Made by a program: the position numbers and the translations under genes. A stretch of DNA of 64,000 bases from Bacteroidia bacterium (GTDB lineage: Bacteria; Bacteroidota; Bacteroidia; Cytophagales; Cyclobacteriaceae), in the NCBI GenBank assembly GCA_030432655.1, contig JAUILA010000021.1, forward strand, positions 1 through 64,000, written 5' to 3'. The notes under the pieces were generated by a model. The model had not been told where the DNA came from. It saw only the letters and a list, made by a program, of their open reading frames with translations, and did not search any database. This document shows positions 11,414-40,468 of this stretch, in pieces (the stretch's first letter is position 1; the number at the start of each line of letters is the position of its first letter).

Positions 11414-12052
11414 TTATCCTTCCTCCTCCTCTTCTTTTTTCTTCCTTGCTTTTAGAAATTTTCGCACCACCGGGATAAGTGCAAGTATCACGATTGCCGG
11501 CAGCAGGTATTTCAGGTATTTTTCTATGCCCGGAATAGCCTGACCCAGATAATAACCGGCAAGTAACAGGCTCGTGACGTACAGGATGATCCCGATAATC
11601 ACGTACATCAGGAAACCGGATAGTTTCATATTGATCGTTCCGGAAAACACCGGATTGAACGTCCGGATGATCGGCAGGAAGCGTCCCAGGATCAGGGCAG
11701 ACTTACCGTGCTTTTTGTAAAAGTTTTCTGCTTCCGTAAGGTATTTCTTTTTAAAGTACCACGTATCCTCTTTCTTATAAAGCCCGTCGCCCCATTTACG
11801 TCCGATATAGTAACCGGTAAGGTCCCCGAGGAACGCAGCACCGACCAGCACCGGGATCATTAAGGTGATATCAGTCTGCAGGAATTGGGTACCCGACAAA
11901 AGGCCGGCGGTAAAAAGGAGGGTTTCACCCCCCGGTACGACCAGTCCGATCAAAAACGCGGTTTCAACATATACCAGCGCAATGATGATGGCAAATCCGC
12001 CCCATTTAATAATTGATTGGTTATCCAGAAAGGCAAAAAGTTCGAATTCCAT
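11414..12052 (-). CDS. DedA family membrane protein
   Basis: GGETLLFTAGLL DedA signature. Multi-TM, with an EEEEEG tail. Confidence 0.75.
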   Translation of the reverse strand: MEFELFAFLDNQSIIKWGGFAIIIALVYVETAFLIGLVVPGGETLLFTAGLLSGTQFLQTDITLMIPVLVGAAFLGDLTGYYIGRKWGDGLYKKEDTWYFKKKYLTEAENFYKKHGKSALILGRFLPIIRTFNPVFSGTINMKLSGFLMYVIIGIILYVTSLLLAGYYLGQAIPGIEKYLKYLLPAIVILALIPVVRKFLKARKKKEEEEEG

Positions 12053-20422: not shown

Positions 20423-21211
20423 TTACTCCTTCTCCCCCTTCCGATCCATGGTTTTCATCAATAAGTCAAGTTTTTCTTCCAGGGCAATAATGCGTTCCTC
20501 GGTCCGTGATGGTGCCTTCATGTGTTCGCTGTAATAGGCCCGGACTTTCCAGATTTCCAGCAGGGCATTCCTGGAGTAATGCAGGATGTCAAAAGCCGGG
20601 TCGTCCGTTTTGAAGGTCAGGTTTTTGTTAATATCGCTCAACCGGCGTACGCGGATTGCATCATCTGTAATCAGCACATACAAGGTTCCCACTTCGAGCA
20701 TATCTTCCTTTCTAACCCGGTCACATAAAAGAATATCCTGATGGTGAATCCCGCAGTTTTCATATTCCATCTCCTTCCCGTCTACCTGGAAGGCCCGTGT
20801 TTTTTCAAACTGTGTGAATGGAAACTGGAAGGAAGGGAGGGAGTTGATAAAGTCTTTGTTCTTATGGCTTACAATATATTCGGTCATCTTATCGATCAGG
20901 ACCAGCGGGGTTTGTTCTTTGAGAAGATCCTTGTCAAGGATGACTTCACTTTCCGTCTTCGCCTTTCCACCTGCAGAGAATAGGTCAAACTTATATAATT
21001 CATTGATTGTGAGTTCTTTGGTGAGAAGGGCGTCAGTACTGATTTTAAAATGCTTCGCTATTTCTATGAGCGTATCTATTTTTGGTTCGGACCGGCCTTC
21101 TTCATAGGCTCCCACACTTGGTCGGGCTAAATTGAACAGCTGAGCAAAATCTGCCTGACTCATTTTCTTCACTGAACGTATTTTTTTGATGTTTTTCCCA
21201 ATTTTTGACAT
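20423..21211 (-). CDS. XRE-family HTH transcriptional regulator with LexA/cI-like S24 domain carrying substituted catalytic residues (Ser to Glu, Lys to Arg)
   Basis: N-terminal HTH_XRE (KKMSQADFAQLFNLARPSVGAYEEG). C-terminal region aligns to LexA VSGMSM...VKRL as VDGKEM...VRRL. Confidence 0.7.
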   Translation of the reverse strand: MSKIGKNIKKIRSVKKMSQADFAQLFNLARPSVGAYEEGRSEPKIDTLIEIAKHFKISTDALLTKELTINELYKFDLFSAGGKAKTESEVILDKDLLKEQTPLVLIDKMTEYIVSHKNKDFINSLPSFQFPFTQFEKTRAFQVDGKEMEYENCGIHHQDILLCDRVRKEDMLEVGTLYVLITDDAIRVRRLSDINKNLTFKTDDPAFDILHYSRNALLEIWKVRAYYSEHMKAPSRTEERIIALEEKLDLLMKTMDRKGEKE

Positions 21212-21450
21212 GTGAATATTTTTTTTCTTTTGTGTAACCTCTTAAGAACTAGTACGTAAATATAAGTAATTAGTTGCTCAAAAAAATAGCAATGACAAAA
21301 AAAGTAGCATTATTTAATTTTATTTATTACTTTTAGAATTAGATGCGAGGCTACATTCAGTATTAGTATACTTTTTATGATTTCCCTCGGGAGTCAAAAA
21401 TATAATTAATACTTTCAATCGATTTATTCACCTCTAACTCAAATCAACCT

Positions 21451-21852
21451 ATGAACGAATACTTCAAAAAAGTACGGGATTACCTGCTGGACCTAAACTA
21501 CAACATCAGCTATGAAGCTGAAACAGACGGTGTCATCGTCGTGGATGAACAAAGTGCAGGAGTGCAAAATCTGGTACTTGGGGTAGCAGACCCGATCCTG
21601 ATCATCGAACAGTTCATTCTGGAGATCAATGGCAACAGTGCAGAAATCTATCGCAGCCTTCTTCAGAAAAACCGCGACATCATCCATGGAGCCTTCGTGC
21701 TTGATGAAAGCGGCACCAAAGTGATTTTCCGGAATACCCTGGAACTTGAAAATCTTGACCTGAACGAACTGGAGGCGTCCTTTAATTCGCTCAGTCTGCT
21801 CCTAAGTGAGTACTCAAACGAACTAATCCAATTTTCTAAGAAAAAACAATAA
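21451..21852 (+). CDS. YbjN/YjfI-like small cytoplasmic protein (putative sensory-transduction regulator fold)
   Basis: 133 aa, acidic. Pattern resembles YbjN-like domain proteins. First gene of the pspA operon, 11 bp upstream of pspA. Confidence 0.4.
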   Translation: MNEYFKKVRDYLLDLNYNISYEAETDGVIVVDEQSAGVQNLVLGVADPILIIEQFILEINGNSAEIYRSLLQKNRDIIHGAFVLDESGTKVIFRNTLELENLDLNELEASFNSLSLLLSEYSNELIQFSKKKQ

Positions 21853-21862
21853 ACATACGATC

Positions 21863-22591
21863 ATGAAAATCTTTAAACGACTATTCAAAATCGGCCAGTC
21901 CGAGGCCCATGCAGCTATAAACAATCTTGAAGATCCCATTAAGCTGACCGAACAGGGTATCCGCGATATGAAGGAAGACCTTGATAAGGCGCTTAATTCA
22001 CTGGCCCAGGTGAAAGCCATGGCCATCCGTGCCCGAAAGGATGCGACCACCTACTCGGAAAAAGCGGAAGAGTATGAGGGAAAAGCGGTGACTTTGTTAA
22101 AGCGTGCTCAAAGTGGTGACATTGATTCATCCGAGGCAGACAGGCTGGCCACCGAAGCCCTTGCACAGAAAGATAATAATCTTCAGCACGCTTCCCGCGC
22201 ATTGGGAGAGCAGACGAAATACGAAGAATCAGTTGAAAAGCTTGAAAGCAATGTCAACCGGCTCAAGTCAACCATTAATCAGTGGGAGAATGAGTTGAAA
22301 ACACTCAAGGCACGCGTCAAAGTGAGTAACGCAACCAAGAATATCAACAAGCAAATGGCGCAGATCGATTCCACGGATACGATCTCCATGCTGGAACGAA
22401 TGAAGGATAAAGTTGCTCAGGAAGAAGCACTGGCCGAATCCTACGAAGAGATGGCCAACGAATCCAGAAGTATCGATGAGGAAATCGATCGTACCCTGGA
22501 GGAGTCCGGTAAATCCGACAAAGCCCGTGAACTGGAAGCTTTGAAGGAGAAACTTGGAATAAAAAAAGAGGACAGTTCTGACAAAGAATAA
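21863..22591 (+). CDS. pspA: PspA/IM30 (ESCRT-III-like) family protein
   Basis: 242 aa all-helical. Alignable with E. coli PspA over the full length (N-terminal amphipathic helix, coiled-coil hairpin). Confidence 0.85.
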   Translation: MKIFKRLFKIGQSEAHAAINNLEDPIKLTEQGIRDMKEDLDKALNSLAQVKAMAIRARKDATTYSEKAEEYEGKAVTLLKRAQSGDIDSSEADRLATEALAQKDNNLQHASRALGEQTKYEESVEKLESNVNRLKSTINQWENELKTLKARVKVSNATKNINKQMAQIDSTDTISMLERMKDKVAQEEALAESYEEMANESRSIDEEIDRTLEESGKSDKARELEALKEKLGIKKEDSSDKE

Positions 22592-22597
22592 TTAATC

Positions 22598-23221
22598 ATG
22601 GGCGAATTACTTGAGGCGGCACTTTCACCAGCAAACCTGGTGATTACAATCCTGGCGGTTTTTGTAGTGATCTACTGGATCACCGTGATCATCGGCCTGG
22701 TGGATGTCGACCTGTTTGATCTCGACTTAGATCTTGACATGGACGTCGATGCCGACGGAATTTCGGTCGGCTGGCTCAACTCGGCCCTTGCCTTTTTCAA
22801 CCTGGCACAGGTGCCCATCATGATCTTCCTGAGTTTCCTTATCATTCCGGCCTGGGGCCTGATACTAATCGTTAACAATGCATTAGGGATTGAATCCTTC
22901 CTGCCCGGATTGCTGGTACTTATTCCTGTATTCATCATCAGTTTGTTCATTGCCAAATTCATGACAATTCCCTTTGTGAAAATTTTTGGGAAAATGTCAG
23001 AGGAGAAGGAGAATGAAGTGGTCATTGGCAAAGTCTGCGAAGTTATTGTTCCCACGAGGGGCAGTAAAGTCGGACAGGCGCTTGTAACAACAAACGGGGC
23101 ACCCCTGCGACTGAATGTCTTTACAACAAAAGGCATCGAGTTGATCAAAGGGGATAAAGGCCTGGTCATTGAATACCAGAAAGAACGAAATATTTATTTA
23201 ATCGAACCTTATAACAATTAG
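22598..23221 (+). CDS. YqiJ/NfeD-like inner-membrane protein (TM N-terminus, acidic DLDLD stretch, C-terminal OB-fold)
   Basis: Multi-TM N-terminal half. C-terminal VIGKVCEVIVP...GQALVTTNGAPLRLNVFT...GDKGLVIEY resembles the NfeD OB-fold. Sits immediately upstream of a flotillin gene as in yqiJK. Confidence 0.6.
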   Translation: MGELLEAALSPANLVITILAVFVVIYWITVIIGLVDVDLFDLDLDLDMDVDADGISVGWLNSALAFFNLAQVPIMIFLSFLIIPAWGLILIVNNALGIESFLPGLLVLIPVFIISLFIAKFMTIPFVKIFGKMSEEKENEVVIGKVCEVIVPTRGSKVGQALVTTNGAPLRLNVFTTKGIELIKGDKGLVIEYQKERNIYLIEPYNN

Positions 23222-23223
23222 AA

Positions 23224-25395
23224 ATGGCAACAAATGTAACGATCGTTTTAATTCTGGTCGGCGTTATCCTCGTAATCGGGATATTGTCGCTCTTTATTAA
23301 AATGTATAGAAAAGCTGTCCAGGGCGAAGCACTCATCAGGACTGGTGTTGGCGATGCAAAAGTTTCATTCTCCGGAATATTTGTCATCCCGGTAATGCAC
23401 AAACTGGAGGTTATGGACATCACCCTCAAAACGGTCAATATATCGAGAATGGGGAAAGATGGTCTCATATGTAAAGACAATATGCGAGCCGATATCAAGG
23501 TGAGTTTCTTTATCCGTGTAAACAAAACCACGGAAGATGTAATTCATGTAGCACAGTCAATCGGATGTCAGCGCGCTTCGGATATTCAGCAACTTGAAAT
23601 GCTGTTTGACGCAAAATTCTCCGAGGCCTTAAAAACCGTAGGTAAGCACTTTGACTTTGTGGAACTCTATAATTCACGAAGCAAATTCAAGGAAAAGATC
23701 CTGGAAGAGATCGGTACGGACCTCAATGGCTATGTGCTGGATGATTGCGCCATAGATTATGTGGAGCAGACATCGATCCTTGATCTTAATGAACAAAATA
23801 TCCTTGACGCACAGGGTATCAAGAAGATCATTGACCTGACGGCCGCAGAAAAGGTGAAGTCCAACCTGATCGAGCGGGAAAAGGAAAAGACCATTAAGAA
23901 GCAGGACGTGGAGGCGCGCGAAACCATTCTCCAGCTGGAAAGGCAGCTTGCGGAGAAGGAAGAGCAGCAGAAACGTGAAATTGATAACATCAAGGCCCGT
24001 GAAGAAGCGGCGATTGCCAAGGTGCGTGAGGAGGAACGTCTCAAGTCCGAAAAAGCACGAATTACCACCGAGGAAGAACTTGGGGTAGCCGAGGAGAACA
24101 AACTCCGTCAGATCGTAGTGGCGCAGAAGAGTAAGGACAAAACGGAAGCGGTTGAAATGGAGCGTGTGGAACTTGCCCGTGCCCTGGAGGCAACCGAACG
24201 CGAGCGGGTGGTTGAGCTGGCGCAGATTGATAAGGAGAAGTCCCTCGAAGTGGAGCGCAGAAATATCCAGGAGGTTATCCGTGAGCGCGTGACCGTGGAG
24301 AAGGCAACAGTGGAAGAAGAGGAAAAGATCAAGGATACACGCGCGAAGGCTGAGGCTGATCGTAATAAGATGGTGGCGATTACGCTGGCCGAACAGAATG
24401 CCCAGGAGGCGCTTGTTAAAGAGATCAAATCGGCCGAAGCTGCCAAACAGTCGGCAGAACATCTTGCTGAAAAAGCGCTGGTGGATGCACAAGCGGAGAA
24501 ATCAGCGGCCGAACACCGCGCAGAAGCCATGAAGACCATGGCCGAAGCAGAAGCCGCTCAGAAAGCAGCTTTAGGTATGTCCGAGGCACAAGTCATGAAA
24601 GCCAAGGCAGAAGCACTCGAAGAGCAGGGTGAGTCGGAAGCCTCCGTGATCGAAATGAAAGCAGAAGCCGAAGCCAAAGGAATCCGGGCCAAGTCCAACG
24701 CGCAGGCGGAAGCCGAAGAGCGCCTCGGATTTACCGCAGCCAAGGTAAACCGGGAGAAAGGGCTTGCCAATGCCGAGGTGACGGAAGTTCAGGCAGCTGC
24801 CGACGAGAAGAAAGGCCTTGCCGACGCCAGGATCATGAAGGAGAAGTTCGCCGCGGATGCAGAAGGCATAAAAGCCAAAGCGGAAGCTATGAAACTCTTC
24901 GACGACCAGGGTATCCTTCACGAAGAGTTTAAGTTACAGCTTGAAAAAGACAGGACGATCGAACTTGCTCATTTCGACATTCAGAAGTATGTGGCAGAAG
25001 CACAGGCGAAAGTACTGGGAGAAGCATTCAAGGAAGCCAACATCGATATCATTGGTGGGGAGTCCATGTTCTTCAACCAGATCGCGGGCGCCATTGCCAA
25101 TGGTAAGTCGATCGACGGACTCGTCAATAACAGCAAAGTGCTGAGCGATATCCGCCATACCTTTTTAGGAAGTGAAGGCGGATCTGACTTCAAGCACAAG
25201 ATCGGTGAATTGCTTAAAAGCTTTAATGTGACCAGTGATGATGTGAAGAATCTCACCATTTCTGCGATCCTCTTTAAGCTCATGGGCAAAGCCGATAATG
25301 CCGACCTGAAGTCAAACCTTCAGCAAATGATGAGCATAGCCAAGTCTGCGGGACTCGATAAGGAGACCCCGAGATCATTGGGACTGGCCGTTTAA
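23224..25395 (+). CDS. flotillin-like SPFH/band-7 protein (YqiK/FloT-type) with long Ala/Glu/Lys-rich coiled coil
   Basis: N-terminal TM anchor, SPFH domain, about 350 aa of EA-rich heptads. Start is 3 nt after the upstream stop. Confidence 0.8.
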   Translation: MATNVTIVLILVGVILVIGILSLFIKMYRKAVQGEALIRTGVGDAKVSFSGIFVIPVMHKLEVMDITLKTVNISRMGKDGLICKDNMRADIKVSFFIRVNKTTEDVIHVAQSIGCQRASDIQQLEMLFDAKFSEALKTVGKHFDFVELYNSRSKFKEKILEEIGTDLNGYVLDDCAIDYVEQTSILDLNEQNILDAQGIKKIIDLTAAEKVKSNLIEREKEKTIKKQDVEARETILQLERQLAEKEEQQKREIDNIKAREEAAIAKVREEERLKSEKARITTEEELGVAEENKLRQIVVAQKSKDKTEAVEMERVELARALEATERERVVELAQIDKEKSLEVERRNIQEVIRERVTVEKATVEEEEKIKDTRAKAEADRNKMVAITLAEQNAQEALVKEIKSAEAAKQSAEHLAEKALVDAQAEKSAAEHRAEAMKTMAEAEAAQKAALGMSEAQVMKAKAEALEEQGESEASVIEMKAEAEAKGIRAKSNAQAEAEERLGFTAAKVNREKGLANAEVTEVQAAADEKKGLADARIMKEKFAADAEGIKAKAEAMKLFDDQGILHEEFKLQLEKDRTIELAHFDIQKYVAEAQAKVLGEAFKEANIDIIGGESMFFNQIAGAIANGKSIDGLVNNSKVLSDIRHTFLGSEGGSDFKHKIGELLKSFNVTSDDVKNLTISAILFKLMGKADNADLKSNLQQMMSIAKSAGLDKETPRSLGLAV

Positions 25396-25465: not shown

Positions 25466-28400
25466 ATGAGCGATAAGGAAACTTTGTCGACGGGTGGAAA
25501 CTACGAGGTTCTGAAGTCACGCCTGAATGCAGCAGTTGAAGATTTGAAGTCTTCCCTCGCCGGCCTGAATGAGGCTAGGAAAGATACATTCGGCAATATA
25601 GAACAGAAGCTGGTTGCTACCGAACGGATCAGTACGCAGAATAATTGTGTTCCGAGGGATATGATAGCACTGGGCGATAAGCTCCTGTTTGGCTTTAATG
25701 TGCACATCGGGCTAAAAGCCCAGGTCAGTGTGTCCGATGTATTCTCCATCCACAAATATGAAGATCATGCTTTTCATGAACTGGATAATGCGCTTATCAG
25801 CGACGATCAGTTTGAAGATGATTTTCATAAGCTATATAAATACTACAAGGAAACCACCTTCGTGAAATTCGCGGTCCGCGGTCCTTACCTGTATATGATA
25901 TTCCGTATCGGCAAGGACGAAGAGGATATTAAGGCGTTCAAATGGCAGATCAATGCGGAAGGACTCACCTATATCGATAATCGCAGCGAGTACGAATTTT
26001 CCTATCCCGATCAGCATGAATTCTCCTGGAAAAAGACCACGCGTGACAATCAGCGTCAGGGTAAATTTCCCCATGTTTCCATTGAGGATAAGTTGTTCGT
26101 GGAAACAATAGGAGGTGACCTGACCATAAAGATAGAGGACAATACCGATAACGGTCATGGCATTTACAAGGAGGAAGTGGAGGATGCCGACCAGACCCTG
26201 GATGACAGTGAGATCTATTATGCAATTTACGGCAGCCTGATCCTGTTGAAAATCCGCCCCTACCGCGAAGAGGCATACCGTTACCTCGTGTATAACAGTA
26301 AGCTTCAGCAGGTGCGAAATATACCGTCAATCCGGGAAGCATGTATCTTTCTTCCGGACGACCAGGGTATTCTGTTCACAAATGGATATTACCTGCAATC
26401 CGGTGACTTCAAGGCGTTTGAACGCGACGAAGCCAATCTTAAGTACGAACTGACTATTGCCTCTCCCAATGGGGAGGATTATATGTATGTTTTCTACCAG
26501 CCCGGAATCGGTAATTACCTGTTGCTTCCATATAATATAATTCTCCGTCAGATCGGCACCCCGATATGGTGCCATGGATACGCGCTGTACCAGAACGGCG
26601 AATTGGCTTATTTCACGGCAGATGAGCAGCCAAAGAAGCATCATGTAGTGCGGATCTGGCAAACTTCATATACCGCTCCTGATTTTGAACTGACCCACAC
26701 CAACAATTCTTACCTGTCAAAAGTCGGTAACAAAGATATCGTACGAGCGATGGCGGAATGTCAGGAGATCATTACACTTACGGAGAAAGGAGAGGATTAT
26801 GATGGTTTGTATATTGATCTGTCAAGACAGGCGACAGATGTTATCGACTCCTATTACTGGCTGGATCATGACGAGGCGTTTAATGTAAAAAGTCCGCTGG
26901 AAAATATCCGGCAGTCAGCGAATGCCGCCATTGATGAATTTGACAAAGTAGTCAGGATCCGGAAGGAAACCGGCCAGCGTACGAAAGCTGTTTTTGACGA
27001 GGGGTCCTCACATATTAAGAAAACATCCCGCGAAAGCGGACAATCCCTTGATACGTATGTGGCTCACCTGACTACGTTCAGAAAACTGATGGGGGAAACG
27101 GAAGGCTTGCGTCAGTTGCGGTTTGCAGATGAGGAAGCGGTGGATAAACAGCTTGCGGAATTGAAACAGGCCAGTGAGAGTTACGCGGCATCCTGCGTAC
27201 GGTATCTTCTTCGCCCTGAATCGCTCGAGCCTTACGAAAAACGTATTGACGAATTAGCGGCTCGGATTGATGAGGTGAAAAAGGTGACCGAGGCCAAGGA
27301 ATTGCAGGAGAATATTAATCAGACAGGTAAGGATCTGGAGATGCTGATCGACGTGGTGAGTAATCTTAAAATTGAAGATGCCACACAAACGACAGAGATC
27401 ATTGAAAATATTTCAGCACTTTTCGCGAGGGTTAACCAGCAAAGGGCCCGGCTGAAAAAGCACAGGCAGAATCTGTCGCGGGAGGAATCCAAGGCAGAGT
27501 TTGTGGTCCAGATGAAACTGGTTGATCAAAGCCTCACCAATTACCTGGATCTGTGCGATACACCGGCCCGTTGCGAGGAATACCTTTCAAAGCTGTTAAT
27601 CCAGATTGAGGAGATGGAGAGCCGTTTCGGAGATTTTGAGGACTTCTTTTCTGATATTGCCGATAAACGGGAGATGGTGGTCGATGCCTTTGAATCCCGC
27701 AAGAATGTGATTAATGAAGAGCTCGGTAGAAAGCGTCAGAGCCTTTTTCAGTCCGGTAAGCGAATACTTCAAAGTATAGAAAACCGCGTCTTGAAAATGA
27801 ATGACGCCGCCGAAATTCAGGCCTATTTCACTGCGGATTTAATGATTGAGAAAGTTCGGTCCACCATTGAAAAATTGCGTGAAATTGATGATCCGGTTAA
27901 AGCGGATGATCTGGCTGGACAGCTTAAATCATTACGGGAAGACGCTTACAGGCAATTGTCGGACAGGCAGGATCTGTATGCCGGAGATGATGATATAATT
28001 AAATTCGGCAATTTCCAGTTTTCCATTAATTCGCAGCAACTTGAATTGTCCATTATTCCACGGAATGAATCACTCTATTTCTACCTGGGCGGCACAAATT
28101 TTTACGAAAAAGTCAATGACGAATTTCTGGAGAATAACAAGGAAATATGGGACCAGGTCTATCAGTCCGAATCGCCGGATGTATACCGGGCGGAGTTTCT
28201 TGCCTATTCACTTTTCCAGCAATGGCGGATCCAGGGCAATGAAGTATTAAGTGACATTGAAGCGATGGAGGATCAGGATCTGCTGGAACGGATCCGGAAG
28301 GAAATGTCCACCCGGTTCAACGAAGGATACGCGAAAGGCATTCATGATGAAGATACCCTGAAGATCCTGAAGGCAATTTTCTCATTTTACTCAGCAGGGG

Positions 28401-30310
28401 GGACGCTGATCTACCCGGCGGATATCCGTGCGGAAGCAATGAAATTCTGGTTTTTCACCCTCGATGAGGGTTCCAGGAAAAAATGGAACGACAGGATCAA
28501 GGGTCTTGGATTAATTTATTCCGTTTTTAATAATCCTGCGATTTATGCGGAAACCTGCGCGCTCCTTTTACCACTGATTACAGAATCGTCGCGTGATTCC
28601 TTAACCCGCAGTCAGTATGAAGAGGTGACCCGTTACCTTGTGGAAGAAATGGCGGTGGAAACCACCTTCATCTTGTCTGCAGAAGCAGCGGCAACCGGCG
28701 TTAATTTCAAGGCAGCCCTGAAGAAAAGAAAGGCAGTAAAGACCTTTGAAGAATCGCTCAGGAAAGCGGGTGAAACACCTGCAGAACAATTTGCCATGGT
28801 GTGCGAATGGTTAAGGGTTTTTAGTAATCCGGAAGAACGTGAGTTTATGCAGGAAGCCGCTTTGTACATATTAATGGAAGATGTTTTCAGGGTGTCTGAT
28901 ACCGTTATGAAACACCAGATTGGCGGAATGAAGGGAACACATCCGAAGATCAGTGACCAGAATGAATTGGCGTTGAACTTTAATAATTATTTCAAGCGCC
29001 TTTTAGACTATACAACAGGTACTTTACCGGCGTTCCGTGAATTTCAGCACCGGAAGCAGGAAAAGGTAAAAACGTTTTCCGACGAACTTCGGCTGGATTC
29101 CTTTAAGCCAAAAGTCATGAGCAGTTTTGTGCGAAACAAACTGATTAATGATGTCTATCTTCCCCTCATAGGTGCCAACCTGGCCAAGCAAATTGGGGAG
29201 GCCGGAGCCAATCAGCGAACAGATCTGATGGGACTATTGCTGTTGATCTCTCCGCCCGGCTATGGCAAGACTACGCTTATGGAATATATTGCCAACCGCC
29301 TGGGGCTTATATTTATGAAAATTAACGGTCCGGCCATTGGTCACGATGTTACTTCCGTTGATCCGGGAGAAGCGTCAAGTGCCACTGCCCGCCAGGAGCT
29401 GGAAAAGCTGAACCTGGCTTTTGAAATGGGCGATAATATTATGATATACCTGGATGACATCCAGCACGTGAGCCCCGAATTTTTGCAGAAGTTCATTTCG
29501 CTTTGTGATGCCCAGCGGAAAATTGAAGGTGTTTATAAAGGTAAAACCCGCACCTATGATTTTCGCGGTAAGAAGGTTTGTGTGGTAATGGCAGGCAACC
29601 CCTACACCGAGAGCGGTGAGAAGTTTGCTATACCTGATATGCTGGCTAACCGGGCCGACATCTATAATCTTGGCGACATCATTGGTGATTCCTCCCATGC
29701 TTTCAAATTGAGTTACATCGAGAACTGTATCACGAGTAACCAGACCCTTAATAGCCTGGCCGGTAAAAGCCGCGAGGATATCTATGCACTGATCAAGTCT
29801 GCAGAAGACGGAACGGCAGCCGACACCCTCACCGGCAACTATTCTCCAGATGAAATTTCAGATTACCTCAAAGTATTTAAAATGCTTCTGAAGGTCCGGG
29901 ATGTCATCATGACCGTCAATAACGAATACGTTCGCTCAGCAGCACAAGCAGATGAATTCCGGACTGAACCTCCGTTTAAACTGCAAGGTTCTTATCGCGA
30001 CATGAATAAGATCGCGGAAAAAGTATTTCCGGTCATGAATGAAGACGAGTTGAATATTATCCTGTCGGATCATTATGAGAATGAAGCGCAGTCACTCACC
30101 CGCGGGGCTGAATTTAACCTGCTTAAATACAACCAGCTGACTGATCAGCTGACCGACGAAAACCGGAAACGATGGGATTATATAACCAGTGTCTTTATGA
30201 AACAGCAAAAGCAGAAAGGATACGGGGATAATTCAACGGCGATGCTCGTGGAGAATATGGAAGAAATCAGTGACGGGATTCGTGAGATTGGAAAGGCATT
30301 GAAGAAATGA
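25466..30310 (+). CDS. giant (1614 aa) protein with C-terminal MoxR-like AAA+ ATPase module; N-terminal ~1200 aa of unknown function (beta-rich region + long coiled coil)
   Basis: Walker A LISPPGYGKTT (about 29245), Walker B IMIYLDDIQH, sensor block VVMAGNPYTESGEKFAIPDMLANRAD (compare MoxR ATQNP...LDRF). No recognisable N-terminal domain. Confidence 0.75.
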   Translation: MSDKETLSTGGNYEVLKSRLNAAVEDLKSSLAGLNEARKDTFGNIEQKLVATERISTQNNCVPRDMIALGDKLLFGFNVHIGLKAQVSVSDVFSIHKYEDHAFHELDNALISDDQFEDDFHKLYKYYKETTFVKFAVRGPYLYMIFRIGKDEEDIKAFKWQINAEGLTYIDNRSEYEFSYPDQHEFSWKKTTRDNQRQGKFPHVSIEDKLFVETIGGDLTIKIEDNTDNGHGIYKEEVEDADQTLDDSEIYYAIYGSLILLKIRPYREEAYRYLVYNSKLQQVRNIPSIREACIFLPDDQGILFTNGYYLQSGDFKAFERDEANLKYELTIASPNGEDYMYVFYQPGIGNYLLLPYNIILRQIGTPIWCHGYALYQNGELAYFTADEQPKKHHVVRIWQTSYTAPDFELTHTNNSYLSKVGNKDIVRAMAECQEIITLTEKGEDYDGLYIDLSRQATDVIDSYYWLDHDEAFNVKSPLENIRQSANAAIDEFDKVVRIRKETGQRTKAVFDEGSSHIKKTSRESGQSLDTYVAHLTTFRKLMGETEGLRQLRFADEEAVDKQLAELKQASESYAASCVRYLLRPESLEPYEKRIDELAARIDEVKKVTEAKELQENINQTGKDLEMLIDVVSNLKIEDATQTTEIIENISALFARVNQQRARLKKHRQNLSREESKAEFVVQMKLVDQSLTNYLDLCDTPARCEEYLSKLLIQIEEMESRFGDFEDFFSDIADKREMVVDAFESRKNVINEELGRKRQSLFQSGKRILQSIENRVLKMNDAAEIQAYFTADLMIEKVRSTIEKLREIDDPVKADDLAGQLKSLREDAYRQLSDRQDLYAGDDDIIKFGNFQFSINSQQLELSIIPRNESLYFYLGGTNFYEKVNDEFLENNKEIWDQVYQSESPDVYRAEFLAYSLFQQWRIQGNEVLSDIEAMEDQDLLERIRKEMSTRFNEGYAKGIHDEDTLKILKAIFSFYSAGGTLIYPADIRAEAMKFWFFTLDEGSRKKWNDRIKGLGLIYSVFNNPAIYAETCALLLPLITESSRDSLTRSQYEEVTRYLVEEMAVETTFILSAEAAATGVNFKAALKKRKAVKTFEESLRKAGETPAEQFAMVCEWLRVFSNPEEREFMQEAALYILMEDVFRVSDTVMKHQIGGMKGTHPKISDQNELALNFNNYFKRLLDYTTGTLPAFREFQHRKQEKVKTFSDELRLDSFKPKVMSSFVRNKLINDVYLPLIGANLAKQIGEAGANQRTDLMGLLLLISPPGYGKTTLMEYIANRLGLIFMKINGPAIGHDVTSVDPGEASSATARQELEKLNLAFEMGDNIMIYLDDIQHVSPEFLQKFISLCDAQRKIEGVYKGKTRTYDFRGKKVCVVMAGNPYTESGEKFAIPDMLANRADIYNLGDIIGDSSHAFKLSYIENCITSNQTLNSLAGKSREDIYALIKSAEDGTAADTLTGNYSPDEISDYLKVFKMLLKVRDVIMTVNNEYVRSAAQADEFRTEPPFKLQGSYRDMNKIAEKVFPVMNEDELNIILSDHYENEAQSLTRGAEFNLLKYNQLTDQLTDENRKRWDYITSVFMKQQKQKGYGDNSTAMLVENMEEISDGIREIGKALKK

Positions 30311-30347: not shown

Positions 30348-30366
30348 AACAGTCCCTGTCACCCCT

Positions 30367-30800
30367 ATGTACAGTTGGAGAATTGAGCATACAGTGGGCG
30401 TGAGTAAAAAAGTCTGTCACCCCCGTCTATGGACAGTTGGAGAATTGAGCATACAGTGTGCGTGGGTTAAAAAGTCTGTCACCCCCGCCTATGGACAGTT
30501 GGAGAATTGAGCATACAGTGCGTGTGAGTAAAAAAGTCTGTCACCCCCGTCTATGTACAGTTGGAGAATTGAGCATACAGTGTGCGTGGGTTAAAAAGTC
30601 TGTCACCCCCGTCTATGTACAGTTGGAGAATTGAGCAAACAGTGGGCGTGAGTAAAAAAGTCTGTCACCCCCGTCTATGTACAGTTGGAGAATTGAGCAT
30701 ACAGTGTGCGTGAGTAAAAAAGTCTGTCACCCCCGTCTATGTACAGTTTGAGAATTGAGCATACTGTGTGCGTGGGTCAAAAAGTCTGTCACCCCCGTCC
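30367..30800 (+). repeat. 62-bp tandem repeat array, 7 copies, two alternating unit variants
   Basis: Copies start at 30367, 30429, 30491, 30553, 30615, 30677 and 30739. Variants differ at gtgggcgtgagtaaaaaa versus gtgtgcgtgggttaaaaa. No unique spacers. Confidence 0.9.
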
Positions 30801-30998
30801 GGTAACCTGAACGAGTGATTGTCCCTCCAGACGGGGGTCTGGGATCGGCAGATCGCCGGTAAGCTGGAAGAGTACGATAGGAGGGGCGTAGCGTGGACGC
30901 TACCACCATCATTGGATTAAAGAATACGTCTCCGTAGCTGCTGGATCTCGGGTTACACGACCTTCGGTCGCATCCCCGAGATGACAGCACGTGAGTAC
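30786..30998 (+). repeat. ~210-nt structured repeat element, copy B
   Basis: See copy A. Has a register-shifted hairpin, cggc-agatc-gccg, where the other copies have gggatc...gatccc. Confidence 0.7.
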
Positions 30999-31208
30999 CT
31001 GTCACCCCCGTCCGAAAATCTGAGCGAGTGCTTGTCTCTCCAGACGGGGGTCTGGGATCGGTAGATCCCCGGTAAGCTGGAAGAGTACGATAGGAGGGGC
31101 GTAGCGTGGACGCTACGACCATCATTGGATTAAAGAATACGTCTCCGTAGCTGCTGGATCGCGGGTTACTCGACCTTCGGTCGCATCCCCGAGATGGCAG
31201 AGAATGAG
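30999..31208 (+). repeat. ~210-nt structured repeat element, copy C (overlaps the annotated ltaE ATG)
   Basis: Tandem to copy B. The element's terminal ccccgagatgRcag supplies the ATG at 31194. Confidence 0.7.
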
Positions 31209-31238
31209 AAATACCGTGATTTTTCCTATTTTTCACCT

Positions 31239-34881: not shown

Positions 34882-37197
34882 ATGAGGAAAGTTCTATTGA
34901 CCACCTTGTTGGCTGTGATCTCTTTTGCAATGAACGCGCAATTTTCGAGTAATGCTGACATTGATGATCATAATCGAGTGACGATTAATAAGTATCCTGT
35001 CAACGGATACCTTGAGCATCTTCCCGCAGACTACTATTCAAATCCTACTAAAAAATATCCGATGATCGTGATGCTTCACGGACAGTCGGAACGCGGAAAT
35101 GGTACTACTCAACTCTGGATGGCTGCCAAGGCAGGACCATCTTATGAGGCTGAATATAACGGGAAGTTTTGTATAGATGGAGAATGTTTTATAGTGATAT
35201 CACCGCAGCTTGCAGCGGGCAGCTGGACTGCCAGCGCACAGGCTGGTTTCTGGGATTATATCCTGAATCAGCGCGGACTGCGGTACGATCCGGACCGGAT
35301 CTACCTTACAGGGCTTTCCCTGGGTGGTAACGGGGTCTGGAACTGGATAACTTCGGATTATCCCGGAGCTGATAAAATTGCCGCGGCAACGATCAATGCC
35401 GGTTGGGGAAATACCGGACTTGCTTATAAGGTCAATCAGCGTGGAACTTCGACCTGGGGTTTCCATGGAACAGCTGACCCGGTTATTGCTTATAACAACG
35501 GGAAAGGAATGAGCGACGCGGTAAAAAATTCAAGTAACCCGCATGGAGCTGAACACAGGTGGACGGGCTTTGCCAATCAGGGTCATAACATCTGGTGGAT
35601 GACTTATCGCATGGATGATTACTACGTAAGCCCGAATCCTTATCGTTGGATGGCCGGAAAACGTCGTCAGAATCAGTCCGGTGGCGGAGGTTCAGAGCCT
35701 AACCAGGGACCAAGTGTTAATGCCGGTGCGGACGTAACAGTCAATGCGAATACCGGCTCGGGCAGTGTTACTGCTTCGGCAAGTGATCCGGATGGATCTG
35801 TGGTAAGTTACCGATGGACTAAGATCTCAGGTCCGGCAGTATCCATGTGGAGCACCAATACCGCAACACTTGGACTATCAAACTTTGCTGCCACCGGTGG
35901 AACATATGAATTCCAGATCACGGTAACGGATAATGACGGAGCTACAGCTTCTGACCGGGTACGGGTGATCAAGGAAACTGCTCCTACTGGCGGAGGTGGA
36001 ACCGGCGGTGGCTCTAACAGCGCGCCTACTGTTTCAGCGGGACCTGACGTTACAATCCCTGCTTCTTCAGGTTCAGGGAGTATTCAGGCTTCAGCAAGTG
36101 ACAGCGATGGGTCCATCGCCAGCTACAAGTGGACTAAAATTTCCGGTCCTTCTGTTTCCATGTGGAGCACTAACTCATCGAAATTGTTGCTTTCTAACTT
36201 CTCAGCTAACGGCGGTACGTATGTCTTCCGGGTAACGGTAACCGATAATGATGGTGCCCAGGCTTCGGATGATGTCACCCTTGTGAAACAAGTTGCCGGA
36301 GGCGGCACTTCGTCTTCCGGAAATAATGCGCCAACTGTTTCGGCTGGCTCTGACTTTACAGTACCTGCCAGCTCCGGATCGGCAAGTATCCAGTCTTCAG
36401 CCAGTGACAGCGACGGAAACATCGCCAGCTATAAGTGGACTAAAATTTCAGGTCCGTCCGTATCCATGTGGAGTACCAACTCATCAAAACTGTTGCTTTC
36501 TAATTTTGCGGCTTCCGGCGGTAACTACGTGTTCCGTATAACGGTAACCGATAACGGAGGGGCAACCGCTTATGATGATGTTGTGGTTACGAAGCAGGTT
36601 ACAGGTGGTTCAGGTTCAGGCACAGGCATTACTGTCTCTGCAGGAGCCGACATGACAATCGATATGTATACCGGTTCTGCACTTGTGCAGGGAGCAGCGG
36701 TAGACCAGGGCGGCCATATTGTAAAATACCAGTGGACGAAAGTAAGCGGACCCAGCGTATCGATGTGGAGTACCAACTCTCCAAATCTGGGTCTTTCGAA
36801 CTTTGCTGCATCAGGTGGAATTTATGAGTTCAGGCTTACTGTGACGGACGATTCCGGAAACCAGGCGTCTGATGTGATGAGGCTGACCAAGCTGACTACG
36901 CTTTCAGCTTTGAATAATAATAACTTTAACTACACTATCAATAAGGAATCAGGTGAATTCAGCCGCGTTGAGCAGGAAGTTGAAGTGAAGAACTATCGTA
37001 CTGATGGTAATCCCGTAGAATTCAGCAGCACCCAGCCAATGAGAGTGATTATCATGGGCATCAACGGTGTAATGGTGACGGATGAGAAGGTGAACGGAAG
37101 TGTAAATGCCAACATGCTTTCTAACGGTATGTACATTTATCGTCTCGTGACCGAGGAAGGAGTCCTTGTTCAGAAAGGACGAATTATCCGCTACTAG
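34882..37197 (+). CDS. secreted esterase (alpha/beta-hydrolase, GLSLGG) with 5 PKD-like repeats and T9SS C-terminal sorting domain
   Basis: Signal peptide. GLSLGGNG nucleophile elbow. Five repeats of about 95 aa, each with SDPDGS..SY.WTKISGP.VSMWSTN. C-terminal ...NGMYIYRLVTEEGVLVQKGRIIRY T9SS CTD. Confidence 0.75.
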   Translation: MRKVLLTTLLAVISFAMNAQFSSNADIDDHNRVTINKYPVNGYLEHLPADYYSNPTKKYPMIVMLHGQSERGNGTTQLWMAAKAGPSYEAEYNGKFCIDGECFIVISPQLAAGSWTASAQAGFWDYILNQRGLRYDPDRIYLTGLSLGGNGVWNWITSDYPGADKIAAATINAGWGNTGLAYKVNQRGTSTWGFHGTADPVIAYNNGKGMSDAVKNSSNPHGAEHRWTGFANQGHNIWWMTYRMDDYYVSPNPYRWMAGKRRQNQSGGGGSEPNQGPSVNAGADVTVNANTGSGSVTASASDPDGSVVSYRWTKISGPAVSMWSTNTATLGLSNFAATGGTYEFQITVTDNDGATASDRVRVIKETAPTGGGGTGGGSNSAPTVSAGPDVTIPASSGSGSIQASASDSDGSIASYKWTKISGPSVSMWSTNSSKLLLSNFSANGGTYVFRVTVTDNDGAQASDDVTLVKQVAGGGTSSSGNNAPTVSAGSDFTVPASSGSASIQSSASDSDGNIASYKWTKISGPSVSMWSTNSSKLLLSNFAASGGNYVFRITVTDNGGATAYDDVVVTKQVTGGSGSGTGITVSAGADMTIDMYTGSALVQGAAVDQGGHIVKYQWTKVSGPSVSMWSTNSPNLGLSNFAASGGIYEFRLTVTDDSGNQASDVMRLTKLTTLSALNNNNFNYTINKESGEFSRVEQEVEVKNYRTDGNPVEFSSTQPMRVIIMGINGVMVTDEKVNGSVNANMLSNGMYIYRLVTEEGVLVQKGRIIRY

Positions 37198-37223
37198 TCA
37201 GGATTACATATATTGCAATGAAA

Positions 37224-37253
37224 CCCTGCAGGATTTTCCTGCAGGGTTTTTTT
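37224..37253 (+). terminator. rho-independent terminator
   Basis: ccctgcagg-atttt-cctgcaggg followed by T7. Confidence 0.75.
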
Positions 37254-37283
37254 ATCATCATTTTTCAATAATTAGCATGAAGT

Positions 37284-38333
37284 GTGGCCATCATGTATAT
37301 TTACTGCATGTGGTTGGTTGTTCTGGCGTTCAATTCATTCTCCGTCGTAAAGCTTGGAATTTGTTTCCTGGCTGGCCTGGCTGTCGGTTGGTATTATTTC
37401 AGGAGACCGGGACCCTGGAGTAATATTACTGCTTTATTTCATGGATTGTTCTACGCCGGTATTGTGACATTCATCATGGGGATTATGTTATTTCCGGTGC
37501 TTGGCAGGGTCTGGTACGAATTGTCTAAACCTCCCCTGATGTTCAAAAGTAATGATGACTTGAAGCAATTTACTATCCGGGAGTTTGCAGACCCGCCTGT
37601 GAAAGGTTACCTGGAACATCTGCCTCCCGGATATGAGGAGAATGAGGATGATACCTATCCGATGATCGTGTTTCTGCATGGTCTGGCGGAATATGGAAAC
37701 GGGAAGGATAAAATTTACAGAGCGGCTGAGCTTGGGGTACCACGTGAAGTGGAAAAACTTGGTAATTTGTGTGTCACTAAATCGGACGGAGAAGAAGAAT
37801 GTTTTATCGTCATTGTACCTCAGAAAGACGACAAAGGAGAATGGACGGTGGATATTCAAAGGAATTTCTGGAATTATATACTACACGGGCCTCATAATTA
37901 TCGGTATGATCCGGACCGCATATTCCTGACCGGTTTGTCACTTGGCGCACACGGAGTCTGGGCCTGGGCTCATTCCAAAGAGCCCGATGCCGCTTTGCTG
38001 GCCGGAGCTATACCAGTCAGTGGCCGTGGTAAAAATGCCACCTATGCCTGTCACCTGGAAGAAAATGGTATTAACCTGTGGGCTTTTCACGGCGCTGAAG
38101 ACCCGATCCTTCCTCCGCCAATCGCTATGCAGGAATTTAATGCACTGGAGCGATGTCCTGAGGTGACGGGGGCCGAACATACCTGGACCAACGTTCCGGA
38201 CGTTGGTCACTGGATGTATGAACCAATTTATATCAATGACCACCACATGTTCAATCCGAATATATATGAATGGATGGCAGAGACCCCGAAAAAACATCCT
38301 CCGGCGAAACCTTTACCTGTCCATAGCGAATAA
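37284..38333 (+). CDS. esterase (alpha/beta-hydrolase) paralog of the 34882 N-terminal domain, membrane-anchored
   Basis: Shares YLEHLP, ECFIVI.PQ and YDPDRI.LTGLSLG..GVW.W blocks with the upstream gene. N-terminal 2-TM region carries a GPWS motif. Confidence 0.6.
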   Translation: MAIMYIYCMWLVVLAFNSFSVVKLGICFLAGLAVGWYYFRRPGPWSNITALFHGLFYAGIVTFIMGIMLFPVLGRVWYELSKPPLMFKSNDDLKQFTIREFADPPVKGYLEHLPPGYEENEDDTYPMIVFLHGLAEYGNGKDKIYRAAELGVPREVEKLGNLCVTKSDGEEECFIVIVPQKDDKGEWTVDIQRNFWNYILHGPHNYRYDPDRIFLTGLSLGAHGVWAWAHSKEPDAALLAGAIPVSGRGKNATYACHLEENGINLWAFHGAEDPILPPPIAMQEFNALERCPEVTGAEHTWTNVPDVGHWMYEPIYINDHHMFNPNIYEWMAETPKKHPPAKPLPVHSE

Positions 38334-38386
38334 ATTTACTTTCAACCGTAACAGGCGTATCTTTAATGACGTTGAATAGCTGAAGT

Positions 38387-40468
38387 ATGATCTCTGAATT
38401 CTCTTTGTCATATCCTCCCGGATTTGTTCTGCTGTGTATTGCCGCTGGGGTACTTTATGCTTGGATCGCCTACCGTAAAAAAGGGCCCTGGAGTAAACGG
38501 ATGAATTGGATCCTGTTTGCGGTACGTACCATTATTGTGAGCATTCTTGCCATATTATTACTGTCACCTGTACTGCGGCAGACACGGAATTATACGGAAA
38601 AACCGGCGCTCGTAGTCGCTGTTGATAATTCTGTCTCAATTGGCGCTATCTACGATTCAGGCGCACAGGAATCTCTTAATGAACAAATCCTTGATTTCGC
38701 CGGGAAACTGTCATCAGACGATTTTGAGGTGGAGGTCCGGCTGCTCGATGAGAAAAATCCGGAAGAATGGTCGTATTCAGCCGGAAGTACCAACCTGGAC
38801 CAGCTGCTTCAGAATGTTCGTGAGGATTATCAGGGTATGAACCTGGAAGAAGTGATCCTGATCAGTGATGGTATATATAATGAAGGCATTTCTCCGGGAT
38901 ACCGTGAATATCCGTTTGCTATCACCACCGTGGGTGTGGGGGACAGTTCGGTTAAAAAGGATATTTACTTATCCAATGTGCTTTACAACAAAATTGCTTA
39001 CCAGGGCAATCGGTTTCCGCTGGTGGCAACCGTTAGTCAGAATGGCTATGCCCAACAACCGGTAAGGATGGAAGTGCGTCACGGTGGCCGCGTAGTCGGC
39101 AGTCAAACGGTCAACCTTCCCGCTGAAGGCGTACCGCTGGATGTACAATTTTTACTGGACGCAGATGAGGTGGGATACCAGCAATTCGATGTGATCGTCG
39201 AACAACTCGATGATGAATTCTCCAAAGAGAATAATGTACGTACTGCATTTGTCGAGATTGTCGAAGGCAAGCAAAAAATCCATATGGTTGCGGCCGCCCC
39301 GCATCCTGACCTGAAGGCAATTCGCTCAGCCCTGGAGACAAGTGAAAATTATGAGATCAGCCAATTCATACTAAGCATCCCTGCGGAACGTCAGCAGTAC
39401 CTGTCCCTGGATGAATCTGCCGACCTGGTGATTTTGCACCAGCTGCCTTCCTCGTCGGTAAGCGGCTTTAACTGGCAGGAACGACTTAAGAATTCATCAC
39501 AATGGTATATTTACGGTCCGTCTATGAATTTAACGGCTTTTACCGGCTTTAACCCCTGGCTATCGATTCGGCAGATCAGTGGGGAATTCGACCGGGTATT
39601 ACCTGTTTTCAACACACAATTTGCTCCTTTTACTTTTTCTGACGAACTGCTAGCGCAGTTACAGAATTTTCCGCCAATCGCTGTGCCTTTTGGGGATATT
39701 AATATATCACCACAAGCACAAACGTTATTGTTCCAGCAAATCGGGAGTATCCGCACTAACCGGCCGCTGATTACTGTCAATGAGTCAGCCGATCAGAAAG
39801 TCGCTATCCTGCTGGGCTCAGGAATATGGCAGTGGAAACTGACGGATTATGCGGAGAACAAGGATAACCGGATTTTCAATGAACTGGTATCTAAACTGGT
39901 GCAATACCTGTCTACCCGCGATAATAAGGACCGGTTCCGGTTGTACCCGGTGGAGACTGAATATGAACTCGGCGAAGAAGTGGTTTTTGAGACTGAGGTA
40001 TACAATGAACTTTATGAGCGCATTTACGGAAACAAAGTGGCGCTGGACATTACAGGTCCGAATGGCGAGGTGAACAGTTATTCGTACGTTACGAGCCCGG
40101 CAAACAGCAGGTACAGGGTAGGCGGACTTGAAGAAGGGGTGTATCAATATAAAGGTACTACGGTTATTGATGGAACGGAGGAAACCGTGAACGGACAAGT
40201 CGTTGTACGTGGTGTGGATTTAGAAATGATTAATCTGACTGCCAATTTTAACCTGCTTCGTAACCTGGCATCCGGATCAGGTGGTTCGTTCTATTCTCTC
40301 AATCAATGGAATGAACTTGAATCCCGTTATGAAAACCTGGAAGCGCAGGGAGTGATTCACAGCGAAGAAACCTATTTTCCCGCCATCGACCTTTTCTGGC
40401 TGTTCATTGCTATCCTGGTACTCATATCACTGGAATGGGGCCTTCGCAAATATCACGGATCGTATTAA
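38387..40468 (+). CDS. membrane-anchored vWA-like domain protein
   Basis: N-terminal TMs with YRKKGPWS. VVAVDNSVSIG carries a DxSxS MIDAS-like motif. C-terminal TM. Confidence 0.4.
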   Translation: MISEFSLSYPPGFVLLCIAAGVLYAWIAYRKKGPWSKRMNWILFAVRTIIVSILAILLLSPVLRQTRNYTEKPALVVAVDNSVSIGAIYDSGAQESLNEQILDFAGKLSSDDFEVEVRLLDEKNPEEWSYSAGSTNLDQLLQNVREDYQGMNLEEVILISDGIYNEGISPGYREYPFAITTVGVGDSSVKKDIYLSNVLYNKIAYQGNRFPLVATVSQNGYAQQPVRMEVRHGGRVVGSQTVNLPAEGVPLDVQFLLDADEVGYQQFDVIVEQLDDEFSKENNVRTAFVEIVEGKQKIHMVAAAPHPDLKAIRSALETSENYEISQFILSIPAERQQYLSLDESADLVILHQLPSSSVSGFNWQERLKNSSQWYIYGPSMNLTAFTGFNPWLSIRQISGEFDRVLPVFNTQFAPFTFSDELLAQLQNFPPIAVPFGDINISPQAQTLLFQQIGSIRTNRPLITVNESADQKVAILLGSGIWQWKLTDYAENKDNRIFNELVSKLVQYLSTRDNKDRFRLYPVETEYELGEEVVFETEVYNELYERIYGNKVALDITGPNGEVNSYSYVTSPANSRYRVGGLEEGVYQYKGTTVIDGTEETVNGQVVVRGVDLEMINLTANFNLLRNLASGSGGSFYSLNQWNELESRYENLEAQGVIHSEETYFPAIDLFWLFIAILVLISLEWGLRKYHGSY

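Follow-up and report, generated by a model that had tools for sequence, protein, structure and literature searches.

A DUF3686/DUF7902 AAA+ ATPase encoded with flotillin-, NfeD- and PspA-like proteins in a Cyclobacteriaceae genome, a putative remodeller of membrane scaffolds

PspA is a bacterial ESCRT-III protein, and both PspA/ESCRT-III polymers and the cages of flotillin/SPFH proteins are known structurally; the protein described here may bear on how bacteria assemble, open or recycle them. The subject is a gene for a 1614-amino-acid AAA+ ATPase (25466..30310, forward strand) in a stretch of 64,000 nucleotides from a Bacteroidia bacterium of the Cyclobacteriaceae (GenBank assembly GCA_030432655.1, contig JAUILA010000021.1, positions 1 to 64,000), which is called the window below. 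This gene closes an operon for a CesT/Tir-like chaperone, PspA, a short NfeD-like membrane protein and a flotillin-like SPFH protein, and its product is probably an ATP-driven remodeller of flotillin/NfeD assemblies, and of PspA polymers in lineages that have them.

Ravi et al. 2024 (mSystems, PMC11237479) described an operon in which a CesT/Tir-PspA dyad is combined with genes for a YqiJ/YuaF-type membrane protein, a Band-7/flotillin protein and a "beta-propeller + coiled-coil + AAA+ ATPase", and suggested ATP-dependent membrane remodelling. In the same study, abbreviated operons without PspA were found to be widespread, and a phospholipase-D gene was present in some Proteobacteria; the description was purely computational, with no structure, clade assignment or test. 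Table S3 of that work lists an operon of Dokdonia donghaensis (PspA ANH61663.1; "cHTH+Protease" included), which has the same gene content, order and strand and the same divergent "cHTH+Protease" regulator as the window. The Dokdonia ATPase has the same three-part architecture as the window ATPase, and nothing essential differs. With the family and the operon type already described computationally in 2024, the window adds one more case from Bacteroidota, and its novelty is lower than had been implied by an earlier reading of this DNA made from its letters and open reading frames (ORFs) and without database searches (the sequence-only reading).

The second closely related system is the bacABCDEF operon of Pseudomonas aeruginosa ("biofilm associated cluster", PA14_16140-16200; PMC10948618). 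It encodes BacA (DUF2170, CesT-like), BacB (PspA), BacC (short NfeD), BacD (PaFlo3), as well as BacE and BacF, which were published only as hypothetical proteins. The operon including PA14_16190 is co-transcribed and co-regulated, and all bac products rise in a bacA mutant (BacE 8.9-fold; PMC10948618). Effects on biofilms and rhamnolipids have been reported for bacA and bacB. In Escherichia coli, the yqiJ-yqiK genes (an NfeD2-flotillin pair) are homologous to the NfeD-like and flotillin-like genes of the window and stand in the same order, but no DUF3686 ATPase gene follows yqiK.

Among better-studied AAA+ proteins, CbbQ and NorQ are stand-alone rings of ~260 amino acids per subunit with a vWA/MIDAS partner (CbbO and NorD, respectively), whereas the AAA+ module of the window forms the end of a 1614-amino-acid protein with no vWA gene nearby. 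In the FtsH-HflK/C and Vps4-ESCRT-III systems, an AAA+ ring is paired with an SPFH cage or an ESCRT-III-type polymer at the cytoplasmic face of the membrane. However, FtsH is a membrane-anchored classical-clade protease and Vps4 a classical-clade ATPase with an MIT domain, and neither feature is present in the window ATPase; the analogy we draw is functional and implies no homology beyond the AAA+ fold. SPFH proteins form large membrane cages, sometimes together with NfeD proteins (QmcA-YbbJ, flotillin-1/2, HflK/C with FtsH), and the SPFH protein YdjI of Bacillus subtilis is required to bring PspA to the membrane. Bacteria possess no Vps4-like ATPase for PspA, according to a 2025 review (PMC7619361).

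The ATPase family and the operon

The ATPase gene is intact (ATG start, TGA stop, 1614 codons), and all motifs quoted in the sequence-only reading are present in it, the two helical strings at residues 563-582 and 611-631. That reading held only the C-terminal ~350 residues to be recognisable. In fact, two Pfam families match the N-terminal region, namely DUF3686 (PF12458; residues 26-464, nucleotides 25541..26857; 601.6 bits, E=9e-181, cutoff 25; profile positions 1-448 of 448) and DUF7902 (PF25472; residues 586-668, nucleotides 27221-27469; 103.5 bits, E=7e-30, cutoff 26), and a Pfam AAA match covers residues 1258-1378 of the C-terminal part. DUF3686 and DUF7902 are domains of unknown function, i.e. 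the region is recognisable yet uncharacterised. Our literature searches found no experimental work on a DUF3686/DUF7902 ATPase and no mention of DUF3686 or PF12458.

The gene is real and strongly conserved. A search of a collection of 5.8 billion proteins scored 4,698 homologues, the best 120 of which cover 99-100% of the query with 49-75% identity; the homologues listed agree with it in their Pfam domains. When the N-terminal 1200 residues were used as the query of an exhaustive HMMER search, 1,286 representatives of 50%-identity clusters were returned (400 of them at E<=1e-30), and collinearity persists in matches with as little as 26% identity, in proteins 1600-1900 amino acids long. The nearest named relatives of the ATPase belong to Fulvivirga and Roseivirgaceae (55-75% identity), and the identity across six phyla is still 43-50% over ~1600 amino acids (41% in a Pseudomonas contig). 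Across 72 divergent full-length relatives there is almost no variation in the catalytic motifs (K1268 of Walker A, D1330-D1331, N1378, R1396 and R1511 in 71-72 of the 72), and because of this invariance the protein is probably an active enzyme under strong selection.

The five genes of the operon lie on the forward strand and are separated by 10, 6, 2 and 70 nucleotides, the last gap being that between the flotillin-like gene and the ATPase gene. The first gene (21451..21852) encodes a CesT/Tir-like chaperone of 133 amino acids, which matches CesT_Tir_1 (PF22550) over its full length (E=1.5e-56) and also Pfam YbjN and CesT. It is followed by a gene for a PspA/IM30 protein of the bacterial ESCRT-III superfamily (21863..22591; 242 amino acids; PspA_IM30 E=3.5e-40, residues 3-229). 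The third gene (22598..23221) encodes a YqiJ/YuaF-like (short NfeD) membrane protein of 207 amino acids with hydrophobic segments, an acidic loop and a C-terminal beta-rich soluble domain, and the fourth (23224..25395) a flotillin/YqiK-like SPFH protein of 723 amino acids with an N-terminal membrane helix, an SPFH-like domain, a long Glu/Ala/Lys-rich coiled coil and a conserved C-terminal module. For the latter two proteins, family profiles were built from related loci (A2 and A1, respectively) and compared with the E. coli MG1655 sequences. The NfeD-like profile A2 aligned with YqiJ (hhalign 94.7%, E=5.9e-8), and the best PDB match of this family, at the C-terminal domain, was B. subtilis YuaF (2k14, E=0.12). 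The flotillin-like profile A1 aligned with YqiK over 400 columns (hhalign 100%, E=6.6e-41) and matched the SPFH protein QmcA in the PDB (8z5g, E=8.5e-4); furthermore, a homologue of the 723-amino-acid protein in a related locus (L037) matches both Pfam Band_7 and profile A1 (E=1e-218). The window proteins of 207 and 723 amino acids themselves have no Pfam match even at E<=10 (Band_7, Flotillin and NfeD included), and because they are invisible to Pfam, automatic annotation will miss the membrane context of the operon. The YqiK alignment stops at about residue 428 of 723, and the conserved C-terminal ~290 residues beyond it may be specific to ATPase-linked flotillins.

This operon, which was absent from the sequence-only reading, is the decisive evidence for interpreting the ATPase, and it points away from the name that the family carries in databases. 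Pfam describes DUF3686 in one line as "ATPase involved in DNA repair", and in NCBI most family members bear the name "DNA repair ATPase". A repair enzyme could also explain the RuvB-like Walker A-B stretch (hhalign 95%, E=1.7e-8, 74 columns). However, this similarity is confined to the P-loop region (residues 1246-1293) and stays below the curated cutoffs (RuvB_N 24.3 bits vs 27; NCBIfam RuvB 24.6 vs 282 and 19.9 vs 299), no DNA-binding, nuclease or helicase domain was detected in Pfam, NCBIfam or PDB searches, all conserved neighbours are membrane-associated, and literature linking the family to DNA repair was not found. We rejected the RuvB/DNA-repair identity on the scores of the RuvB models and on the membrane proteins encoded next to the gene; a role in DNA repair is extremely improbable, and the widespread label is without support. 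Apart from this label, nothing connects the N-terminal region to a well-characterised family with a function unrelated to membranes.

Conservation of the neighbourhood and the Pseudomonas bac cluster

A scan of one genome per GTDB species yielded 35 loci with a homologue of the ATPase, from Bacteroidota, Planctomycetota, Verrucomicrobiota, Omnitrophota, Sumerlaeota and Acidobacteriota (Holophagae). The ORFs in all six frames at each locus were searched with hidden Markov models of A1 and A2 and with the other proteins of the window. A flotillin-family gene is located directly upstream of the ATPase gene in 26 of the 28 loci with at least 2.3 kb of upstream DNA, and it is nearly always preceded by an NfeD-like gene. 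Even the four distant homologues (26-30% identity) each have a flotillin gene upstream, and an NfeD-like gene is found upstream in two of them and downstream in one. The NfeD-flotillin-ATPase triad is present in at least seven phyla, and this conserved adjacency probably ties the function of the ATPase to flotillin and NfeD. PspA (11 loci) and the CesT-like gene (9 loci) are essentially restricted to Bacteroidota, with the divergent gene of a putative regulator (described below) alongside. As the triad recurs across phyla while PspA and CesT do not, the conserved functional unit consists of the NfeD-like protein, the flotillin-like protein and the ATPase, and PspA and CesT are lineage-specific additions.

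Two of the homologues deserve separate mention. A Chitinophagales locus (L029:7570-12142) encodes a paralogue of 715 amino acids that consists of the middle helical domain and the AAA+ module only, with no propeller or rod, directly after a transporter with an MMPL/sterol-sensing domain. The Holophagae homologue (L024:9965-15504) is split into two overlapping reading frames by an internal stop or frameshift near position 12,000 of that locus, and is either a pseudogene or an assembly error.

The bac cluster was connected to this family by a scan of metagenome contigs with a 20-nucleotide bac junction primer taken from the published supplement. It retrieved a Pseudomonas contig (L052; 67% GC) with exact matches to three published bac primers. 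The genes on this contig (L052:153-10387) encode, in this order, DUF2170, PspA, NfeD-like, flotillin-like, DUF3686/DUF7902/AAA+ and phospholipase-D (PLD)-like proteins (likewise in L044), and the DUF3686 protein shares 41% identity with the ATPase of the window over residues 5-1610. The bac forward primer maps to the 3' end of the ATPase ORF and its reverse partner to the PLD gene; we used the primer positions alone, since the primers are 174-176 bp apart on the contigs vs 501 bp for the published amplicon. From these positions, BacE (PA14_16190, YP_789436.1) is very probably a member of the DUF3686/DUF7902-AAA+ family, an assignment not stated in the bac paper, and the same gene order implies that BacF is a PLD-family protein. 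The bac operon shares with the window the CesT-superfamily, PspA, NfeD-like, flotillin-like and DUF3686/DUF7902/AAA+ genes. It differs in the chaperone, which belongs to the DUF2170 branch of the CesT superfamily rather than to CesT_Tir_1, in the additional PLD-like gene, and in the reported sigma-54 promoter, where the window has an adjacent regulator gene. The PLD-like gene of Pseudomonas and the MMPL/sterol-sensing neighbour of the L029 paralogue both point to membrane lipids.

PspA and a CesT-superfamily chaperone have joined the triad in two separate lineages (Bacteroidota and Pseudomonas). One could suppose from this that the ATPase is a functional analogue of Vps4 specific to PspA polymers, with flotillin as no more than its platform at the membrane. 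In Bacteroidota the operon does encode both PspA and a CesT-type chaperone, the different CesT family in Pseudomonas suggests that the dyad was recruited twice, and a vacancy for such an enzyme would be in line with the reported absence of Vps4 from bacteria (PMC7619361). Set beside the wide distribution of the triad and the narrow one of PspA, this specialised role seems unlikely to us.

Predicted architecture of the ATPase and its AAA+ clade

Two AlphaFold2 models were computed from alignments of 63 database sequences, one for residues 1-900 (mean pLDDT 85.6) and one for residues 900-1614 (mean pLDDT 83.2, mostly >90 over model residues 60-290); pLDDT is the predicted local distance difference test score. 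The DUF3686 domain begins with a helix (residues 11-42), after which residues 48-399 with ~28 strands are predicted to form an irregular beta-propeller-like domain, in agreement with the beta-rich character that had been read from the sequence for the first ~450 residues. Next comes a helical rod (residues 416-837, 26711..27976) of about eleven helices, which contains DUF7902. The long heptad-rich helical segment proposed earlier for residues ~500-900 is indeed predicted to be largely helical, but only at residues ~500-750 does a crude heptad score rise beyond the 99th percentile obtained with shuffled sequence, and the model shows many helices of 15-58 residues with short connecting loops rather than a single continuous coiled coil; the rod resembles consecutive spectrin-type helical bundles. 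In a Foldseek search with the N-terminal model, the propeller-plus-helix coat-type proteins IFT-A and clathrin heavy chain took the top ranks with TM-scores <0.15, a likeness that on the model is one of layout only. As predicted, the N-terminal part is a propeller on a spectrin-like rod, i.e. an adaptor-on-a-stalk layout. A small beta domain (residues 844-882, 27995..28111) separates the rod from an all-helical middle domain predicted with high confidence (residues ~900-1200, 28163..29065). For this middle domain no separate structural match was obtained, as the ATPase module dominated that search. A linker of low confidence leads from it to the AAA+ core.

The alpha/beta core of the AAA+ module spans residues ~1240-1402 (29183..29671). 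It contains Walker A (LISPPGYGKTT, residues 1260-1270, nucleotides 29243-29275; SPPGYGKTT with K1268), Walker B (IMIYLDDIQH, residues 1325-1334, nucleotides 29438-29467, with the invariant D1330 and D1331), the sensor-1 motif AGNP with N1378 and a candidate arginine finger (NRAD, R1396); the "sensor block" of the sequence-only reading, VVMAGNPYTESGEKFAIPDMLANRADIYNL, corresponds to residues 1373-1402. The helical lid and C-terminal region follow (residues 1403-1614, 29672..30307, delimited by alignment A3, conservation counts and the model). Here the invariant QGSYR motif (residues 1507-1511, nucleotides 29984-29998), separated from beta-5 by ~100 residues of additional helices, carries R1511, a candidate sensor-2 arginine judged by its position and its likeness to the MoxR "SPR" motif. 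In 71 of the 72 divergent family members, Walker B has Asp-Asp (LDDIQH) instead of the usual Asp-Glu. The string DDIQ also occurs in DnaA.

In a structure search, the closest relatives of the ATPase module were CbbQ and NorQ of the MoxR family (PDB 6l1q and 9qh4). The model contains a pre-sensor-1 beta-hairpin (residues 1351-1366, nucleotides 29516-29563), whose two strands (model residues 453-458 and 461-466, i.e. residues 1352-1365) are flanked by helix 438-448 and strand 472-478 of the model, and the segment is strongly conserved in alignment A3. Classical-clade ATPases such as Vps4 and p97 do not possess this hairpin. A Vps4 or other classical-clade identity was rejected because of the hairpin and because Pfam detects no MIT domain. 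The predicted fold and hairpin thus bear out the MoxR-like ATPase of the sequence-only reading, while profile membership in MoxR does not follow. Pfam AAA_5 scored 23.4 bits (cutoff 22), below the generic AAA family (32.7), and when the family profile was aligned by hhalign with two MoxR proteins of E. coli, YehL and RavA, the probabilities were non-significant (20% and 19%), in contrast to the 95% for RuvB. PDB searches with the single sequence and with a profile of 22 sequences returned only matches of the Walker A region to p97, Cdc48 and RuvB, and gave no clade assignment; NCBIfam likewise produced only sub-threshold P-loop matches to RuvB and CDC48. The site of the MoxR helix-2 insert is occupied by a loop of 14 residues (1292-1305, GHDVTSVDPGEASS) with no strands, which could be a reduced insert. 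The module differs from CbbQ and NorQ in this loop, where they have a hairpin, and in the Asp-Asp of Walker B. Finally, as the sequence-only reading had noted, there is no vWA partner; no vWA domain was found in the ORFs scanned from ~14.8 to 41 kb of the window. Because of the weak AAA_5, RavA and YehL scores, the loop at the insert site and the missing vWA partner, MoxR membership is not demonstrated by sequence, although the module is MoxR-like in its predicted fold and would work like a MoxR-type ring. It may also represent a separate lineage outside MoxR.

The hairpin bears on a further explanation, in which the ATPase acts as a protease-free quality-control unfoldase that would extract or refold damaged membrane proteins gathered in flotillin/NfeD microdomains. 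With its invariant aromatics (GVY, TYD) the hairpin would be suited to gripping polypeptides, SPFH cages are known to house AAA+ machines (FtsH-HflKC), the operon encodes a CesT-like chaperone, and in Staphylococcus aureus flotillin together with NfeD is reported to stabilise unfolded proteins (PMC11222466). However, the operon encodes neither a protease nor another degradation partner, processive unfolding is not established for MoxR-type ATPases, and a very long rod with a propeller would fit docking on a large scaffold better than the handling of varied clients. We therefore regard this function as improbable.

Proposed role and genomic setting

We favour the role of a cytoplasmic, ATP-driven remodeller of flotillin/NfeD assemblies and, where present, PspA polymers; remodelling had also been suggested from the sequence, and it is the most plausible reading. 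While domain content, catalytic motifs, the identities of the neighbours and the conservation of the neighbourhood are established, we infer that the protein forms a ring, that it binds directly to flotillin, NfeD or PspA, and that it remodels these assemblies. The C-terminal CbbQ/NorQ-like module would assemble into a ring that binds and hydrolyses ATP, and the conserved pre-sensor-1 hairpin probably grips a segment of the partner. Each subunit would project a long spectrin-like rod tipped by the irregular propeller, which may dock on the flotillin/NfeD cage in the cytoplasm or else on polymers of PspA. Under envelope stress, ATP turnover would then assemble, take apart or reshape these scaffolds beneath the membrane. 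Tentatively, the proposal can be taken further: it is possible, though we would not call it probable, that the family is a dedicated motor whose ring clamps flotillin/NfeD cages with six spectrin-like arms, spends ATP to open, close or recycle them, and also recycles PspA/ESCRT-III polymers in hosts with PspA.

Several points weigh against a remodeller. The two structural models are predictions, computed from 63 sequences with identities of 48% or more, and the propeller fold is weakly matched (Foldseek probability 1.0, target-normalised TM-score 0.3-0.43). CbbQ and NorQ work with vWA partners, for which there is no gene near the window ATPase. Two loci lack an adjacent flotillin gene, that of the Chitinophagales paralogue (L029) and one with genes for an AI-2E transporter and recA upstream of the homologue (L018). 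Deletions, single or multiple, of the paFlo SPFH genes of P. aeruginosa, a family to which the flotillin partner PaFlo3 belongs, caused no strong phenotype (PMC13086221), and measurements of interaction, oligomeric state or ATPase activity were not found in the literature for any member of the family.

Divergently from the operon, on the reverse strand, lies a gene (20423..21211) for a regulator with a helix-turn-helix domain (HTH_3, Cro/C1 type; Pfam E=3.9e-10) and a Peptidase_S24-like domain (E=7.6e-8). By-eye alignment places GKEME at the GMSM and DR at the HK of LexA, and neither catalytic residue of the LexA/CI self-cleavage dyad seems to be retained in the protein. Homologues occupy the same divergent position in 9 loci, all of them Bacteroidota or unclassified. 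The AT-rich intergenic region of 240 bp between the regulator and CesT genes contains a direct repeat, AAAAAAATAGCA / AAAAAAGTAGCA, at 21280 and 21298. A scan for sigma-70 promoters and terminators, with a tool that has no Bacteroidota promoters, gave counts near those of shuffled sequence.

As this regulator resembles phage repressors, one may ask whether the operon is an anti-phage or other conflict system, in which the membrane scaffolds and the ATPase act as sensor and effector. PLD domains like that encoded in the Pseudomonas cluster are used by many defence nucleases, and MoxR/McrB-like ATPases occur in defence systems. However, neither the ATPase nor the four proteins encoded upstream of it had a significant PADLOC match (best E 0.0018-0.0038, P-loop or coiled-coil only), and the very high conservation across phyla is unlike that of fast-evolving defence genes. 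The flanking genes are also housekeeping genes: outside the cluster are genes for a cytochrome bd oxidase, a sodium:solute symporter, an outer-membrane beta-barrel, a beta-eliminating lyase (threonine-aldolase-like), an EamA transporter and MgsA. A defence function is thus very unlikely.

The DNA directly after the ATPase stop codon (30365-31200) is non-coding and contains seven tandem units of 62 bp (93% matches), followed by a unit of 213 bp in 1.9 copies (94% matches). An ORF of 169 codons on the reverse strand inside these repeats (30727-31236) has no Pfam match and is probably spurious. Farther downstream (34882-40468), a protein of 771 amino acids with four K319L-like PKD repeats is encoded ahead of two proteins of 349 and 693 amino acids, both on its strand and with no Pfam match; these genes may form an uncharacterised cell-surface cluster.

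To the published neighbourhood, our analysis adds the structural assignment (CbbQ/NorQ-like ring, spectrin-like rod and irregular propeller, all as predicted), a list of invariant catalytic residues for mutation, and the inferred membership of BacE, with which P. aeruginosa would offer a genetically tractable system. Its location next to flotillin genes in at least seven phyla and its high conservation make the ATPase an obvious candidate for a motor of these assemblies. If this holds true, no dedicated motor of an SPFH assembly would precede it, and bacteria would have a functional counterpart of Vps4 whose AAA+ core is MoxR-like instead of classical.

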